Assembly (NCBI RefSeq): GCF_053078305.1
Contig: NZ_CP166879.1
Reading direction: 5' to 3' (one strand)
Length of the DNA stretch: 64,000 nt
The first letter of the stretch is position 1. The number at the start of each line of letters is the position of its first letter. This document shows, one piece after another, positions 2,944 to 57,766 of the stretch. The position numbers were made by a program, and so were the translations under genes. Below the pieces are notes generated by a model. The model did not search any database and was not told the DNA's origin. It saw only the letters and a list, made by a program, of their open reading frames with translations.

Positions 2944-3872
2944 ACCTGTGAAAGTAATTCAGGGTTGGTGTAAACCTCTTTAAAGGCCGCATTAATATGT
3001 TTTTCTGTCAGCGCCGCGCCTTCACCGCTGGCGGTGAGCCACGCCTGGTTAAGCGTATGTGTCAGAACGCGTAACGCCCCCGGCTTTTCAGCGATAGCCT
3101 GCATGACGGCCAGCTCGGCCTCACCACTGATCCCCCACGCCCTGGCAATGGCCAGCACATCCGCCTTTTTGGCCTTGCGAAGTTGTTTTGTACGGGCAAG
3201 ACGGCTGAACAGGCGCGATAAATCATCAAAGGCGCGGCGTCCACCTTTAAACAATCCGCGCGGGTTACCAATAAGTACCATCCCGATCCCCGTGGCGTCC
3301 TGAATTGCCCGGAGTTGTTCCAGACCGTCAATACCAAGATGATCTGCTTCGTCAACAATCACCAGTCCACGTGTTCCCGTCAGGCGACGGCGGATGGCGC
3401 GGGATAATGCCCCTTTGTTCGCGCGGGTGTAATCAATCCCCAGCGCATCGGCCAGCTCCAGCAAACACTCCGTGACGCTGGAGTGCGCGGGCGACAGGGT
3501 GATCATCCAGGTGTTCGGTTGCTCCTGACAGTAATTACGGGCCGTGGCCGTTTTACCCACACCCGGTACGCCCACAATGACGTTAATACAGCCCATCAGG
3601 CGAACCGCCTGAAACAGTGCGCGCAGCTCCTGGACTGTCTGCGTTTCAACAAACTGTGGCGGCTCGGGCAGTGCGCTTTGTTTATTCCAGTTCTCATACC
3701 AGGAACGCAGGGAAGCAGCCACAGCAGCGTTATCGCCTTTATATTTTCCCTTACGGAAAGCCGATAATGTGCCGTCGGAAATTCCCGCCTCTCTGGCGAT
3801 GGCATACTGCGTCAGTACGCCGCCATCAATAAGTTCATCAATGGTCTTGATTACATCGTTAATATCAGTCAT
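2940..3872 (-). CDS. MuB-like DNA transposition ATPase
   Basis: 310 aa, Walker A GVPGVGKT, N-terminal HTH-like segment, located after transposase as in Mu. Confidence 0.8.
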   Translation of the reverse strand: MTDINDVIKTIDELIDGGVLTQYAIAREAGISDGTLSAFRKGKYKGDNAAVAASLRSWYENWNKQSALPEPPQFVETQTVQELRALFQAVRLMGCINVIVGVPGVGKTATARNYCQEQPNTWMITLSPAHSSVTECLLELADALGIDYTRANKGALSRAIRRRLTGTRGLVIVDEADHLGIDGLEQLRAIQDATGIGMVLIGNPRGLFKGGRRAFDDLSRLFSRLARTKQLRKAKKADVLAIARAWGISGEAELAVMQAIAEKPGALRVLTHTLNQAWLTASGEGAALTEKHINAAFKEVYTNPELLSQV

Positions 3873-50078: not shown

Positions 50079-50537
50079 ATGTATCCCCTGCGTGTCGATC
50101 TGCGCGCTGGCACCTTCGCCGCAGATCCACTCTTCCAGACGCTCGCTAAGCGCTTCATCCGTCAGCTTCTCGCGCCCACGTAACGCGCACTCCCAGACAA
50201 TCAATACGCGCCAGCCGAGTTCCTGCAAGCGACTGATATCGCGGCGATCGCGCTCAACATTTTTACCTATCTTCTCCAGCCAGAACTCGGTTCGAGTCGC
50301 AGGCACTTTAAACAGATAGCAGTGATGATGATGCCAGAAGCAGCCATGGGTAAATATCACGCAGCGATATTCATCAACGACAAAATCCGGGCGTCCGGGC
50401 AGACTGGAGTCCTGAACGCGAAACGCCAGGCCCTGCCCGGTTAACAGACTGGCGAGGCGCTTCTCAATCGCCGTATCACGCGTGGCAATCGCGCGCATAT
50501 TTTTGCTGCGAGTGGCCTTATCGTGAACGTCGGCCAT
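50067..50537 (-). CDS. vsr: very-short-patch repair endonuclease
   Basis: Starts [17 protein letters not shown]; overlaps dcm 3' end. Confidence 0.95.
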
Positions 50538-51936
50538 GTTGTGCCTCTTGCTGACGCAACGCCACCGCCTGTTTGATTTTTGGCTCAAGCAGTTTTGCCA
50601 CCGCGGCAAAGACCGGCACGACCACCGAGTTACCGAACTGGCGATAGGCCTGAGTGTCCGAAACCGGAATACGGAATTTCGCTTCTCCCGGCGCTTCAAA
50701 ACCCATTAAGCGCGCGCATTCCCGAGGCGTTAACCGACGTGGACGATGTTGCTGATTCAGCGGATCGTCAAAGTCTTTCTCACCCGTGGCCATATCCCAG
50801 CCGCGATCGATTAAAATTTCCGCGCCATCTTTGTAATAACGCGCAGACAGCGTACGGGTGACGCTTTGCGGATTGTTCGGATAAACCATTCCATAACCGA
50901 AGCCGTTACCGCGCGCCTGATGTTTTTTCGCATATCGATAGAGGTACTTCCACAGTACCGGCGTCAGGATATATTTCGCCTCGACCATCGGGTCCAGCAG
51001 CTGCGCCAGCGTCACTCGCTGTGCAGGGAAACATTCGCTGATATCACGCAGAGTAAAATCGGCTTTAAGATTCAGATCGCGACGAAAACCCACCAGCACG
51101 ATGCGTTCACGGTGCTGCGGCAGAAAATGTTTACCATCGATGATTTTCGGATCGTCCGGCCCGTTATCTTCTGCATCAGCCACGTCATAGCCCAGTTCGT
51201 CCAGCGTCTGCATGATGATGCGGAACGTTTTACCCTGGTCGTGGCTTTTCAGGTTTTTGACGTTTTCGAGCACAAACATCGCCGGACGACGCGCGTCGAT
51301 AATGCGCACCACATCAAAGAACAGCGTGCCCTGAGTATCGCAGGCAAAACCGTGCGCCCGCCCGAGCGAGTTCTTTTTCGATACGCCAGCCAGCGAAAAT
51401 GGCTGACAAGGGAAACCGGCCAGTAAAACATCGTGTTCAGGAATGTGTTGACGAATATGTTCCGCCGCCGCCTCATCACTCACGCCTTCTTTATGGCTGA
51501 GGGTGATGTCGCGGATATCTTCATTAAAATGATGCGTCGCCGGATCGCAATAATGGTTGGCTTTATAAGTGCGTACCGCATGTTTGTTCCATTCGCTGGT
51601 AAACACGCACTGTCCGCCAATCGATTCAAAACCGCGACGGATGCCGCCAATTCCGGCAAATAGATCGATAAAGCGAAACGCATAATGCGGATGATGTGCC
51701 GGTGGTTTGGGTAACAACGTTTGCAGATGGGCGAACTCTTTCTCACTTAAACGGTGCCATGCCGAGTCATTCGCCAGCGCACGTTTTAAAATTGCCGCGC
51801 TCCAGTGATTCTCACCCACACCATTAAGCTGCGCCACCAGCGTTTTAACATCATAAATTTGCAGCAGTTTCTCCAGCATTGCCTGTGCGGCATTCCCGGT
51901 GCTGTATGAATCGGTTACTGATATATTTTCCTGCAT
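50518..51936 (-). CDS. dcm: DNA-cytosine methyltransferase
   Basis: 472 aa; C5-MTase motifs FAGIGG and PCQ. Confidence 0.95.
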
Positions 51937-52002
51937 AGATTTAACCGGCCATCTGGGATGGTCGACAGGTTAACATAATTACTGCCGTTTAGGGCCACGC
52001 GC

Positions 52003-52698
52003 TCAGCCCGCAGGTGAAAACGCATCTATCACCTTGTGATCGACACCTTCATTCTCCCCCGCCAGTTCGGCACTGAGCTTCGCCATAAACTCGACTAAAA
52101 ATTGCGCGTTGTGCTGCGCCAGCTGCTTGCCTCTTATGGTTTGCATGGTTTGCGGTAGCTTCAGCAACTTAGTCTGGAAATGATCCAGCGCGTAACGTTT
52201 ATCATCAAGCGGGCGATACTGTGCGAACGGATCTTCGCCATCAAACAGCGCCACGCCCAATGCCCCTGAAACGGCAAACACGCGCGCCAGGCCAATCGCC
52301 CCCAGGGCTTCCAGCCGATCCGCATCCTGGACGATTTTAGCTTCCGTTGTTAAGGGGGCGATTTGCGCGCTGAAACTGTGAGCGGCAATGGCATGACAAA
52401 CGGCCTCGATTTTCTCCGCCGGAAATTGCTCGAACTCTTCACGGAGCAGGCGACGCGTCTCTTCTGCCGCCAGAATTGAAGAACGCTGCCGTTGCGGATG
52501 ATTTTTCGCCAGGCTCACAATATCGTGAAAATAACAGGCGGTTAAAATCACCAACATATCGACATCGTCATCTGCCGCCAGCTTCTGTGCCGTAGCCCAG
52601 ACGCGGCGAAAATGACACAAGTCATGGGCCGCGTCCTGGTGCTGATGATGGTTTTTCAACCAGTTTTCGAACTGTGCCTGCCAGTGTTGTAAGTCCAT
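52003..52698 (-). CDS. yedJ: HD-domain phosphohydrolase YedJ
   Basis: HD motif; likely start [10 protein letters not shown]. Confidence 0.85.
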
Positions 52699-52737
52699 AC
52701 GCGCTCCGTTGCCAAAGAGTCGCCACCTTAGCAATTT

Positions 52738-53121
52738 TTATTCATAGCGTCTGCTACGTGCGGGACGAGGTCGGGTGTACCAGGCAATGCTGCCTAACAA
52801 TGCCCCGACCAGAGCCATAAATAAAAATCCGACCAGTGCCCCTAACCACTTTCCCGCGGTAGAGCCTAAATCGCTTTCAAATCCCGACACGGGGGCATCG
52901 GGGATCCGGCTCATCACCCAGATGTAACGCGCCATTGCCCAGACGAAATAGCCACACCATGTATAGAAAGCCCACAATGCCAGTTTGCCGCCAGGGCTGC
53001 GAGAGAGTCTCTCTTCCATCTTTGTAGAACCGTATTCCATTTTGAGATAACCCGGAAAATTCAGACTTAGTACTATTATGTGATAAAAGTCACATTTTTC
53101 CACATTGGATGAGCCAGTCAA
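52738..53121 (-). CDS. yedR: inner membrane protein YedR
   Basis: 127 aa ORF with two TM helices; start uncertain. Confidence 0.8.
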   Translation of the reverse strand: MTGSSNVEKCDFYHIIVLSLNFPGYLKMEYGSTKMEERLSRSPGGKLALWAFYTWCGYFVWAMARYIWVMSRIPDAPVSGFESDLGSTAGKWLGALVGFLFMALVGALLGSIAWYTRPRPARSRRYE

Positions 53122-53267
53122 GACTCACTCATTTTTTGAACAAATAGATAAATTTTGCGCAACGGCAGTGAATACAGGAAAAATCGTTTTGAGCGATTTT
53201 ATTTATCTTTGATATCGGCTTTATTAATTCATTCAATCAATATATTAGCACTGATTACAATTATACC

Positions 53268-53358
53268 TTTTTATTATTCTGTGTCATGATGCTTCCGTTA
53301 TTAGCCTTTTATCGTCTTGTTTATATTTTTTGGGCCGGCATGATGCCGGCTTTTTTTT
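53268..53358 (+). ncRNA. rseX: putative small RNA (RseX-like position) ending at an intrinsic terminator
   Basis: Strong hairpin gggccggcatgatgccggc plus T8 at 53332-53358 in the AT-rich yedR-yedS spacer; 5' end not determined. Confidence 0.35.
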
Positions 53359-53669
53359 ATGCCTTCATTAATGTGCGCGTGATCACACCAGGTGTTTGGC
53401 GCAACAATCATTGATACCCCCTATCTTTCCGCTCAACTCATAACATATTGATATACATTTATAATTTTCATGAATATTTATATTTAGAATTCATAATTAT
53501 GAATTATATTAAATAGATTGGAAACATTTTGAAATCTTTTAAATACATTTGTTACATGTAATCCTTAAAATAAAATGAACTTCATAGAATAGTATCCAAA
53601 TGTGCTTTTTTTTGGATAACGGCACTTATTGATATATTCATGAAGATTATAATCACAAGGGAATACATA

Positions 53670-54857
53670 ATGAAAAGAAAAGTTCTGGCAATGCTGGTCC
53701 CGGCGTTATTAGTTGCTGGCGCAGCAAATGCGGCTGAAGTCTATAATAAAGATGGTAATAAACTGGATTTGTACGGAAAAGTAGCGGGCCTGCACTACTT
53801 CTCTGATGATGCTGGCAGCGATGGCGACATGTCATATGCCCGTATCGGTTTCAAAGGTGAAACTCAGATCGCTGACCAATTCACTGGTTATGGTCAGTGG
53901 GAATTTAACATTGGCGCAAACGGTCCTGAAAGCGACAAGGGTAATACCGCAACGCGTCTGGCATTTGCAGGTTTCGGCTTTGGTCAGAATGGTACTTTCG
54001 ACTATGGTCGTAACTACGGTGTCGTATATGACGTAGAAGCATGGACCGATATGCTGCCAGAATTTGGTGGCGATACCTATGCTGGCGCTGACAACTTCAT
54101 GAACGGTCGTGCTAATGGTGTTGCAACCTACCGTAACAATGGCTTCTTTGGTCAGGTCGATGGCCTGAACTTTGCTCTGCAATATCAGGGTAATAATGAA
54201 GATGATGGATTATTCGGTCAGGAAGGTTCTGGTAACGGTAATGGCCGTAAGTTAGCTAAAGAGAACGGCGACGGCTTCGGTATGTCCACTTCCTATGACT
54301 TCGACTTCGGTTTAAGTCTGGGTGCTGCATATTCTAACTCTGACCGTACCGACAATCAGGTTCACAAAGGTACTCATAACACTCGTTATGGAGATCGCTT
54401 CGATGCAACTGCTGGCGGTGAAACAGCAGAAGCATGGACCGTTGGTGCTAAATACGACGCTAATAACGTTTACTTAGCAGCTATGTATGCTGAAACCCGT
54501 AACATGACTGGTTACGGTGATGCTGATGCCATCGCTAACAAAACCCAAAACTTTGAAGTTGTTGCTCAGTATCAGTTCGACTTTGGTCTGCGCCCGTCCA
54601 TCGCTTACCTGCAATCTAAAGGTAAGGATTTAGGCGGTGTAAATAGTGATAACTTCGACAGCCAGGGTAATCATCACTACACCAACAAAGATCTGGTTAA
54701 ATATGTTGATATTGGTATGACCTACTACTTCAACAAAAACATGTCCACCTATGTTGATTACAAAATCAACCTGCTGGACAACGACGACGACTTCTACAAA
54801 GAAAACGGCATCGCTACCGATGATATCGTTGCTGTGGGCTTAGTCTACCAGTTCTAA
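53670..54857 (+). CDS. yedS: outer membrane porin, OmpC/OmpF family, uninterrupted reading frame
   Basis: Signal peptide [21 protein letters not shown] then [17 protein letters not shown]-terminal VGLVYQF; continuous frame across the full porin length. Confidence 0.85.
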
Positions 54858-54898
54858 TCAGCCAACGCGCCGCGGCGTGTTACTGTAAAACTGAACAC

Positions 54899-54935
54899 TA
54901 GCCTGAGTTCGTCCCTCATCGAACTCAGGCTTTTT
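54899..54935 (+). terminator. rho-independent terminator after yedS
   Basis: Hairpin agcctgagttcg...cgaactcaggct followed by T-run. Confidence 0.7.
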
Positions 54936-55448
54936 TATTGGCATTTCATCTCCATCTGCGGCACACGCAATTGCCGAAGCATATCGATACAGCACCTTAG
55001 CCTGCCCCTCCTGGCACAATAACATCAACCAGCTACTCTTCAAGCTAACACCCAAATGCATTTCTTTATGAATTAATCCGTAACAAACACGCTTCCCATA
55101 TAGAAATATTTGCAAAAATAGTGCATGAAATAAGCTTTTTCTCTACCAATCCGCGATATAAATATTCATCAGCACCACAATATTCCACAGCACTAAATCT
55201 CTCCCCGCCGCCCCGTACCTCTGATAATGGTCTAAAATCATTGAGGCCACTTGCGACGACGTTACTCAATAAGGAAAATTTGGCGTGAATAATATTCAAC
55301 ACCAGTGCAGCATCATCATTACATACTTACACCCGCCGACTACAGCTTTCGATATATTGACTCAATTTTCCAGCCTGGTTAAAAATAGCGACCAGCTCAG
55401 TCGCAAATATAGTGACTACCCTAACTAAGCAACAATAAGGAATACACT

Positions 55449-56300
55449 ATGACTGTTCAAACAAGTAAAAATCCGCAGGTCGATATTGCTGAAGATCATG
55501 CATTCTTCCCTTCAGAATATTCGCTTAGCCAATATACCAGTCCTGTCTCTGATCTTGATGGCGTGGACTATCCAAAACCTTATCGCGGTAAACATAAAAT
55601 TCTGGTGATCGCCGCGGACGAACGTTATTTGCCGACCGATAACGGAAAACTGTTCTCGACCGGTAACCATCCGATTGAAACGTTGCTGCCGTTGTATCAT
55701 CTCCATGCTGCAGGTTTCGAATTCGAAGTGGCGACCATTTCCGGTCTGATGACCAAGTTTGAATACTGGGCTATGCCGCACAAAGATGAAAAAGTAATGC
55801 CATTCTTTGAGCAGCATAAATCGTTGTTCCGCAATCCGAAGAAACTCGCGGATGTTGTCGCCAGCCTCAACGCTGATAGCGAATATGCAGCAATCTTTGT
55901 TCCTGGTGGTCATGGCGCACTTATTGGTTTACCTGAAAGCCAGGACGTAGCTGCCGCTTTACAGTGGGCAATCAAAAATGACCGTTTTGTTATCTCCCTT
56001 TGCCACGGCCCGGCGGCTTTTCTGGCGCTTCGCCACGGCGATAACCCACTGAATGGTTATTCCATTTGCGCATTCCCAGACGCCGCAGACAAACAAACGC
56101 CAGAGATTGGCTATATGCCGGGTCATCTCACCTGGTACTTCGGCGAAGAGCTGAAGAAAATGGGCATGAACATTATTAATGACGACATCACCGGGCGAGT
56201 ACATAAGGACCGTAAAGTTCTCACCGGCGACAGTCCTTTCGCAGCGAATGCGTTGGGTAAACTGGCGGCGCAGGAAATGCTGGCAGCTTACGCGGGTTAA
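55449..56300 (+). CDS. hchA: Hsp31 glyoxalase / protein deglycase
   Basis: 283 aa; DJ-1/PfpI fold. Confidence 0.95.
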   Translation: MTVQTSKNPQVDIAEDHAFFPSEYSLSQYTSPVSDLDGVDYPKPYRGKHKILVIAADERYLPTDNGKLFSTGNHPIETLLPLYHLHAAGFEFEVATISGLMTKFEYWAMPHKDEKVMPFFEQHKSLFRNPKKLADVVASLNADSEYAAIFVPGGHGALIGLPESQDVAAALQWAIKNDRFVISLCHGPAAFLALRHGDNPLNGYSICAFPDAADKQTPEIGYMPGHLTWYFGEELKKMGMNIINDDITGRVHKDRKVLTGDSPFAANALGKLAAQEMLAAYAG

Positions 56301-56407
56301 TCCCTGTTACGTTTGAATGTAAGCGCATAATCAATCGCAGCCGCGTTAGTATTCACGACGTGGCTGCGTTTTTTCACGGTTAATTTATGGCGTACTGAAG
56401 CCCTATG

Positions 56408-57766
56408 TTAATTTCTTTGCGGCAACGTAATCCGGAACACATTATGCTTATTGAGATAGTGATACGTAGCACTTCCCCCATGTAATTCGGCAATCGCTTT
56501 GACTAAAGAAAGGCCTAGTCCCTGACCTACGGAATGACGCGAATTATCTCCCCGCCAAAATCTACGGAAGAGTTTTTCAGGCTCATTAATTTTCGTTCCA
56601 GGGCTGGCGATATCAATATTAAGATAGCTGTTGGTATCAAGAAAACTGGTTATATGAATACGCGATTTTTCTGGCGAATATCGAATAGCGTTAACAATAA
56701 GATTCGATAACATTCGTTGCAGTAAAATTTTATCCGCAAAGATTTGCTGATTGCACTCGACCTTAAAGCAAATCTCTTTCTCGTCTGAAAGATATTCAAG
56801 ATAGTCCAACAAATTTTCGACTTCCTTATTGAGAGAAAGCGAGTCCAGTTTCACCAAAACATTGTTTTTATCTGCCCTGGCAAGAAACAGTATGTTCTCT
56901 GTTAACCGCGAAATATTTTCCAGTTCTTCAATGTTACCGGCAATTGTTTTTTGATATTCAGCGATACTTCTGGTTTGACTGAGCGTAACCTGATTCTGAC
57001 CCAGTAATGCATTAATTGGCGTTCTAAGTTCATGAGCGAGATCGTCAGCAAACTGACTTAGACGCTCAAAATCTTTGACTAAAGCATGATGCATTTTATT
57101 CAACGCCTGCCCAAGAGGTTTTAGTTCTCTCGGTAATGCGCTAACCTCAACAGGCTCCCGGCTATCGTTATAATTCAGCGCTTCCGTTACACCACTCAAC
57201 TTTTTGATCTCTCGTAACCCCGTTCGGATTAACAGCGGACTTAATACTGAGCACAGTATAATGGCGACAATGCAAATTATAATGCTATTGATTTTATACT
57301 GTTCAAGCATGTTATGTCTGGCTGAAGCCAATTTAGCCACAGTAACCGTTAATGATGGCGAAACTTCATCAATATTAATTCGTAAAGCATCTATCTCTGT
57401 ATCATTAATAATGCTTCTGTAAATGCCAGCTGCGCTGATTGTCTCACTAGCAGGTATGTTATTTAACATGCCATCACTGACATTTGTCCGGTTAACAATT
57501 TTATTGATGCTATCACCATGAATGATCAAGATATCCTGACTAACATCCATCATCCGGTTAAAGTACACAGGTAACGTATCTGGATTTACCCCATCAATTA
57601 ACAACTGCTTGATCTGTGCTGTCCGGTTAATGAGTGTTGTATCATCGCGCCATTTCAACTCACTTGCCAGGCCATTATAGAGAGTCCAGACAATTCCGGC
57701 GCCAGCAACAGACAGCAGCAATATAAAAAGCAAGGTTAAACGGACGGTTATAGATAATCTTTTCAT
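56408..57766 (-). CDS. hprS: sensor histidine kinase
   Basis: 452 aa; two TM helices, HAMP, H-box HELRTP, ATPase domain. Confidence 0.9.
   Translation of the reverse strand: MKRLSITVRLTLLFILLLSVAGAGIVWTLYNGLASELKWRDDTTLINRTAQIKQLLIDGVNPDTLPVYFNRMMDVSQDILIIHGDSINKIVNRTNVSDGMLNNIPASETISAAGIYRSIINDTEIDALRINIDEVSPSLTVTVAKLASARHNMLEQYKINSIIICIVAIILCSVLSPLLIRTGLREIKKLSGVTEALNYNDSREPVEVSALPRELKPLGQALNKMHHALVKDFERLSQFADDLAHELRTPINALLGQNQVTLSQTRSIAEYQKTIAGNIEELENISRLTENILFLARADKNNVLVKLDSLSLNKEVENLLDYLEYLSDEKEICFKVECNQQIFADKILLQRMLSNLIVNAIRYSPEKSRIHITSFLDTNSYLNIDIASPGTKINEPEKLFRRFWRGDNSRHSVGQGLGLSLVKAIAELHGGSATYHYLNKHNVFRITLPQRN

Follow-up and report, generated by a model that had tools for sequence, protein, structure and literature searches.

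The small RNA (sRNA) gene rseX and the porin gene yedS of Escherichia coli lie side by side, and the copies described here are those in a 64,000-nucleotide stretch of DNA from contig NZ_CP166879.1 (NCBI RefSeq assembly GCF_053078305.1), the whole of which is termed the window. Both genes, their positions and the pseudogene state of yedS in E. coli K-12 are already documented, and nothing at the locus is new. The map order drpB-rseX-yedS has been described together with the lowering of OmpA and OmpC by the 91-nt RseX (PMC7648144), and in the literature RseX, when made, reduces the expression of ompA, ompC, fimB, ihfB and fepA in an Hfq-dependent manner, the terminator loop being required for fepA repression (PMC11979758). 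RseX is undetectable in wild-type K-12, appears in hns mutants and is present in larger amounts in hns stpA mutants, and "RseX and surrounding areas" are de-repressed when H-NS is missing (PMC8313858); a passage of the same paper cites literature for a sigma-70 promoter of rseX supported by 5' rapid amplification of cDNA ends (5' RACE). A comparable porin system described outside E. coli is Salmonella ompS1 (STY2203/t0883), which is bound by OmpR and OmpR-dependent, with the OmpR chromatin immunoprecipitation (ChIP) motif TGTWACAW reported upstream (PMC3586657), and which is silenced by H-NS/StpA with LeuO as the antagonist (PMC4264507).

The arrangement in the window is very probably that of the two separate genes described for E. 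coli, with rseX ending at a strong hairpin and an intact yedS of the OmpC family placed downstream with a control region of its own. The porin gene has drpB (yedR)/rseX on one side and hchA on the other and shares the strand of rseX, as at the E. coli yedS locus. Comparison with the K-12 counterpart, the pseudogene b1964-b1966, shows the same slot, neighbours and signal peptide with 97-100% DNA identity in the flanking DNA, in rseX, in the control region and in roughly the first 530 bp of yedS; the window gene differs in the absence of a TAG codon and a 1-nt deletion and in having another allele for the 3' part (54200-54875). The window copy of RseX shares the sequence, position, strand and terminator of the described RNA (Rfam RF01401; Douchin et al. 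2006) with no sequence differences.

Likeness to OmpC is found in the fold family, in a near-identical signal peptide and N terminus and, upstream of the gene, in an 11-nt core of box C1 and the spacing from box to -10 element, with the remaining upstream DNA being unrelated. The two porins differ in locus, in loops L4, L5 and L7, which are longer in YedS, and in length (395 amino acids compared with 368). In a further difference from ompC, yedS has no micF partner, and rseX is placed upstream on the same strand rather than divergently. OmpS1 is, like YedS, an OmpC-family porin, and its long AT-rich upstream region and TGTWACAW motif also occur at yedS, although yedS has one upstream site compared with the two reported for ompS1. 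The features of the locus are as follows.

53256..53261, +: TACAAT, the probable -10 element of the rseX promoter, with a weak -35 element (sequence; the Rfam model begins 7 nt further on, at 53268)
53268..53358, +: rseX, the gene of a 91-nt Hfq-binding sRNA (Rfam RF01401)
53332..53360, +: intrinsic terminator of rseX, a GGGCCGGCA-UGA-UGCCGGCUU stem-loop (53332-53352) followed by a U-run (terminator scan; RNA fold)
53498..53669, +: conserved regulatory region and 5' untranslated region (5' UTR) of yedS, about 20% GC (alignment of Escherichia, Citrobacter and Superficieibacter)
53521..53560, +: four OmpR-box-like half sites with ~10-bp phasing, GAAACATTTT, GAAATCTTTT, AAATACATTT and GTTACATGTA, forming a putative OmpR region (likeness to ompC; conservation)
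53586..53591, +: TAGAAT, a -10-like element in an invariant block, with the yedS transcription start predicted near 53598 (alignment)
53657..53663, +: AAGGGAA, a Shine-Dalgarno-like sequence of yedS (sequence; kept in the upstream-region alignment)
53670..54857, +: yedS coding sequence, intact, 395 amino acids plus TAA, with the signal peptide in codons 1-21 (53670-53732), a PEFGGD constriction-loop motif and the C terminus ...VYQF (open reading frame (ORF), Pfam, NCBIfam)
54200..54875, +: allele-specific (mosaic) 3' part of yedS with the variable surface loops L4-L8 (drop in K-12 identity limited to this segment; indels in predicted loops)
54900..54937, +: intrinsic terminator of yedS with a 12-bp stem, a loop of 8 and a T-run (terminator scan)

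The rseX gene and its terminator

The intrinsic terminator that the initial annotation had placed at 53332-53358 is recovered by both the terminator scan and the RNA fold as a stem-loop (53332-53352) composed of nine pairs, six of them G-C, with a loop of three, directly followed by TTTTTTTT (8 T). The hairpin dominates the RNA fold with a centroid of -14.6 kcal/mol. The terminator scan returned five sites compared with 1.9 expected, and a terminator-like site is by itself weak evidence. The sRNA gene suspected at the position of RseX is clearly identified by Rfam RF01401, which matches 53268-53357 on the plus strand over model positions 1-94 of 94 and reaches 97.7 bits where the gathering score is 50 (E = 1.4e-13), and the alignment with K-12 rseX has 0 mismatches in 91 nt. 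As the Rfam score is above threshold, the sequence is identical to K-12 rseX and the position is that of the published rseX map, the hairpin is assigned to rseX and, as read from the sequence, terminates an independent sRNA gene that has the same orientation as yedS and lies ~310 bp ahead of the yedS ATG. Every one of 13 complete E. coli genomes spread across the similarity ranking has rseX in this position, whatever the allele or state of yedS.

A second Rfam match in this area, to RyhB at 53300-53358 (23.1 bits compared with a threshold of 55, E = 0.32), was set aside as a resemblance between terminators only. The candidate -10 element of rseX does not appear in the consensus promoter scan because its -35 element is poor. 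The minus strand has a near-consensus sigma-70 site at 53260-53287, with ATGACA and TATAAT separated by 16 nt (11 of 12 matches), directed towards drpB and overlapping the 5' end and the -10 element of rseX. This suggests divergent promoters overlapping at the 5' end of rseX; such matches are expected in AT-rich DNA.

The control region of yedS

The roughly 500 bp of AT-rich DNA noted ahead of the porin gene corresponds to 53122-53669 (548 bp), which has 29.4% GC and falls to 20.4% over the last 230 bp (53440-53669), compared with 49.2% for the whole window. From the rseX terminator to the yedS ATG the distance is 311 bp, with 28% GC. Conservation is low directly past rseX (53360-53497) but extends to Citrobacter and Superficieibacter over the ~170 bp nearest to yedS, which include the block AATGAACT..T.GAATAGTATC, a stretch without variation among 10 sequences of 3 genera. 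The 11-mer ACATTTTGAAA at 53524-53534 forms the core of TTTACATTTTGAAACATCTA, a sequence present upstream of ompC in the ompC locus (L094) and which we take to be OmpR box C1. A second element, TGTTACAT at 53550-53557, fits the motif TGTWACAW, and the last OmpR-like box is placed 25 nt from the -10 element, compared with 27 nt from C3 to GAGAAT in ompC. The layout of tandem half sites and a -10 element is present and is conserved in three genera, and the base composition (20-29% GC compared with 49%) fits the class of DNA silenced by H-NS. The AT-rich DNA between rseX and yedS is most likely the control region of yedS and not a transcribed leader carrying an attenuator, and the earlier placement of the terminator within a yedS leader does not hold, as the hairpin closes a separate gene and precedes the likely promoter of yedS. 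For this promoter we infer an OmpR-type arrangement starting near 53598 and silenced by H-NS.

The alternative in which the hairpin acts as an attenuator supposes a promoter upstream of 53268 and a long yedS leader, with read-through controlling the porin and RseX arising as the terminated by-product. In its favour, rseX and yedS have the same orientation with only 311 bp of gene-free DNA separating them, they remain neighbours in Escherichia and in at least one Citrobacter, and loss of H-NS de-represses the DNA that carries both (PMC8313858). However, the terminator is strong, having a 9-bp G+C-rich stem and 8 U, and the DNA directly downstream of it is the poorly conserved segment, the conserved promoter-like and OmpR-like block being nearer to yedS. 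Many genera also keep a porin in this slot without a detectable rseX, and the porin must therefore have its own promoter. Attenuation is accordingly considered very improbable in comparison with a separate control region for yedS.

Several observations weigh against the proposed OmpR control and against an expressed yedS. TGTWACAW occurs eight times in the window compared with 7.9 expected, which is the chance level, so that the case for OmpR draws on the conservation and on likeness to the ompC boxes. Promoter-like hexamers are similarly prone to chance in AT-rich DNA, with eight found compared with 5.6 expected. Even with an intact ORF, a gene may be silent or its mRNA poorly translated. A syntenic Salmonella ompS1 locus is not among the 80 loci kept from a synteny scan across genera with one genome per species; the sole Salmonella locus returned (L071) has 65% identity and is without dcm, yedJ and drpB as neighbours. 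The presumed equivalence of yedS and ompS1 draws on the labelling of yedS as ompS1 in PMC2731931 and on database names, "outer membrane protein S1" being the name in some E. coli records.

The working that we infer for this strain covers silencing of yedS by H-NS, dependence on OmpR, the transcription start, expression and pore function. In it rseX would be transcribed from its own weak sigma-70 promoter, would end at the hairpin and would be kept off by H-NS/StpA as in K-12. An H-NS-bound silencing tract would lie upstream of the OmpR-type yedS promoter, which would comprise tandem OmpR-like boxes at 53521-60 and a -10 element at 53586-91; transcripts would begin near 53598 with about 70 nt of 5' UTR, giving the quiescent-porin pattern of Salmonella ompS1. 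YedS, when expressed, would be exported through Sec, inserted by the β-barrel assembly machinery (BAM) through its C-terminal Phe signal and assembled into trimers, and the pore is predicted to pass small hydrophilic solutes, carbapenems included. The strain-variable outer loops may alter what phages, colicins and antibodies see.

A rather unlikely extension of this proposal is that rseX and yedS form a co-silenced module for exchanging porins, in which lifting of the silencing would allow RseX to lower OmpC and OmpA while the OmpR-type promoter makes a strain-specific YedS. The linkage of the pair in Escherichia and in at least one Citrobacter and the location of both genes in H-NS-repressed DNA (PMC8313858) are consistent with such a module. 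If it exists, the surface porin would be exchanged in one step and the function of RseX would be visible only in strains with an intact yedS; that function would then have long been obscure in K-12 because the partner gene is dead there.

Pairing between sRNA and mRNA was calculated with ViennaRNA duplexfold and compared with dinucleotide shuffles. The pairing of RseX with the yedS start region is not better than random in this low-power test: the long versions of RseX and MicF gave z = +0.20 and +0.29, and the restricted versions gave z = +0.63 for RseX and +0.35 to +0.42 for MicF, with the known RseX target ompC reaching just -0.79, which marks the test as powerless. It says nothing either way because this known target fails too. 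As a control, the ompC start region (L094 1015-1070) and the 5' part of MicF gave a pairing free energy (dG) of -14.1 and z = -2.77, beating 98.8% of shuffled MicF sequences, which probably reflects start-region sequence common to ompF and ompC; with yedS the pairing of MicF was not good.

At 53155-53289 and 53286-53414 the AT-rich spacer contains two short ORFs, one of which overlaps rseX; they have no support and were judged spurious.

Reading frame and alleles of yedS

The porin frame, described earlier as continuous from the signal peptide to VGLVYQF, stands on realignment to K-12, with 395 codons containing no internal stop and no frameshift and ending in ...AVGLVYQF. The listed ORF is longer (53640..54857, +, 405 amino acids). 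The start codon of yedS is assigned to the ATG at 53670 (MKRKVLAML...) because the ATG at 53640 is not kept in Citrobacter and Superficieibacter and AAGGGAA precedes 53670. The signal peptide, judged by alignment, ends in Ala-x-Ala and is followed by the mature sequence AE(V/I)YNKDGNK, aligning residue for residue with the N terminus of the OmpC precursor. Residues 27-395 match Pfam PF00267 (Porin_1) over positions 1-337 of 337 with 471.8 bits compared with a cut-off of 23.7 (E = 2e-141), the L3 motif LPEFGGDTY is formed by residues 129-137, and the C-terminal aromatic residue is present (...VGLVYQF). An AlphaFold model, built from 12 alleles and serving solely to separate strands from loops, has about 16 strands at a mean predicted local distance difference test (pLDDT) score of 55.9, a low confidence; the 16-stranded fold is backed by full-length alignment to solved 16-stranded porins. 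The best PDB match is OmpK37 of Klebsiella pneumoniae (PDB code 6V78) with 487.9 bits (E = 2.6e-145) over the full mature length. As the neighbours are those of K-12, DNA identity is 97-100% outside the 3' half of the gene and both K-12 lesions are absent, the gene is identified as yedS, which would encode an alternative 16-stranded general porin of the OmpC family.

The Prokaryotic Genome Annotation Pipeline (PGAP) names the gene ompC, and the syntenic gene is labelled "ompC: porin OmpC" in RefSeq, where the features beneath the matches of a 2-kb query are "drpB" and "porin OmpC" or "porin". The NCBIfam subfamily "porin OmpC" is consistent with this name, with 540.9 bits passing a cut-off of 484, and the equivalog cut-offs for OmpF and PhoE are not reached. 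The NCBIfam model is, however, a subfamily and not an equivalog model, and alignment shows only 63% identity to the genuine OmpC, which is encoded at a separate locus between rcsD/micF and apbE, each genome also matching at other, separate places (with a median of 3 places). The likelihood that the gene is simply ompC is close to nil, that reading being already refuted by position and divergence, and the gene is yedS. Automatic annotation as "ompC" can mislead porin-loss and carbapenem-resistance calls made from genomes.

The interruption of yedS in K-12, mentioned earlier, is confirmed by the RefSeq flag "frameshifted; internal stop" on the MG1655 counterpart, and both lesions were located in a three-way alignment over window positions 51500-56500. 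The first is a TAG that replaces the CAG of window 54153-54155 (...GFFG*VDGL...), and in the second 1 nt is missing opposite window 54332, the K-12 frame being read from there in another phase as far as ...VGLVYQF. The window gene has neither. Identity to K-12 is 97-100% throughout the aligned region except at 54200-54875, where it drops to 71-94% with three in-frame indels.

The uninterrupted state of yedS noted earlier is real but not unusual: 10 of the 13 sampled genomes have an intact gene (352-404 amino acids). The three broken copies each differ, being those of K-12, of an O157:H7 strain with a frameshift and of strain 700481 with an IS3 insertion. The 2-kb query has matches in 5425 of 5426 complete E. 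coli genomes, and the best-matching genome, a pig isolate with 99.8% identity, carries an intact 1188-nt gene. The exact window protein is present on 241 public contigs and its 90%-identity cluster has 1201 members. A 61-mer bearing the K-12 TAG is found exactly in 357 of 5426 genomes, those listed being K-12-type or laboratory strains (ER1709, MC4100), and the equivalent 61-mer of the window is found exactly in 339 of 5426. E. coli normally carries yedS in intact form; K-12 departs from this norm and is a poor model for the yedS locus. In the O157:H7 strain F7508 (L003 40-320) drpB and yedS are both annotated as frameshifted pseudogenes, which may be real or a sequencing artefact of homopolymer runs.

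The open frame could alternatively belong to a decaying or permanently cryptic relic contributing nothing to the cell in this strain. Several independent losses (the stop and frameshift of K-12, the O157:H7 frameshift and the IS3 insertion of 700481) and the location in an AT-rich region silenced in K-12 are in line with such decay, but the ratio of nonsynonymous to synonymous substitution rates (dN/dS) stays far under 1 in every comparison, at 0.07-0.28 when the allele of the window is set against seven further intact ones, which points to purifying selection on yedS. No damage is seen in the signal peptide, L3 motif or C-terminal signal, the identical protein recurs on the 241 contigs and the porin slot is kept across genera. 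A clinical isolate without OmpC and OmpF is reported by Warner et al. (2013, AAC 57:1935) to have a functional YedS that admits carbapenems and is regulated by MarA through MicF. A relic is therefore regarded as quite unlikely.

The differences between alleles are concentrated outside the strands of the predicted structure (pLDDT 55.9), with a mean identity of 78% for strand residues compared with 60% for non-strand residues and with 156 of 160 gap cells outside predicted strands. In the same model the most variable segments are L2, L4, L5 and L7 (24-51% identity), while L3 with PEFGGD is conserved (82%). The pattern is that expected of a working surface-exposed porin with outer loops that are diversifying and recombining. 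A strain in which yedS is intact would have a general porin in reserve, with possible effects on the entry of antibiotics, and the same protein would act as a variable antigen or receptor at the cell surface; a passage of PMC11267920 cites yedS as mediating carbapenem entry.

The gene is hyper-allelic in one slot, the intact E. coli alleles of 352-404 amino acids falling to 59% amino acid identity, while residues 1-23 with the signal peptide are invariant and rseX and the upstream DNA stay 97-100% identical across these alleles. Relative to K-12 the window allele is a mosaic with a break near 54200, and the representative of its 90% cluster is from Escherichia albertii.

Neighbouring genes and the porin slot in other genera

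The gene order in the window is dcm, yedJ, drpB/yedR, a 650-bp intergenic region, the porin ORF on the plus strand, hchA and hprS. The neighbours in K-12 are identical, with dcm, yedJ and drpB upstream and hchA and hprS downstream. The flanking features are as follows.

50518-51936, -: dcm (ORF list)
52738..53019, -: drpB (yedR), a cell-division protein gene and the divergent left neighbour bounding the intergenic region (ORF; RefSeq drpB coding sequences of K-12 and of the best-matching genome)
55449-56300, +: hchA (ORF list)
56408-57766, -: hprS (ORF list)

The start codon of drpB is described as ATG-22 in PMC7648144, and the yedS-yedR intergenic region has been described as a host-informative marker (PMC11267920).

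In the one-genome-per-species scan at least 10 genera have a close relative of the porin immediately downstream of dcm-yedJ(-drpB), among them Escherichia, Citrobacter, Superficieibacter, Klebsiella, Kluyvera, Enterobacter, Lelliottia, Buttiauxella and Intestinirhabdus, and hchA follows the slot porin in Escherichia only. Outside E. coli, rseX is found by blastn in four other Escherichia lineages, and it was not found by the covariance model in the eight other syntenic genera tested, which include Klebsiella, Kluyvera and Superficieibacter. The porin slot is thus old and rseX a later addition. Two Citrobacter loci (L019 and L024, each at 3115-3207) have rseX-like sequences scoring 56.5 bits (above threshold) and 43.9 bits (below threshold) ~300 bp upstream of the syntenic porin. 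The pairing of sRNA and porin would predate the genus Escherichia, since these sequences precede the syntenic Citrobacter porin.

The slot porin of Klebsiella pneumoniae ATCC 13883 (L035 3501-4643) is 69% identical to YedS and is distinct from OmpK35, OmpK36 and OmpK37. OmpK37 was considered as the yedS orthologue and rejected, as the slot porin is just 70% identical to it, making OmpK37 a paralogue. The Klebsiella slot porin may be the gene termed "ompC (commonly known as ompS1)" that is OmpR-dependent in PMC10783089.

In some E. coli (loci L008 and L013) a "hypothetical protein" without a counterpart in K-12 is annotated on the minus strand of the gap between yedS and hchA. The window has two overlapping small ORFs (85 and 78 amino acids) on the minus strand at 54858-55302, between the yedS terminator and hchA.

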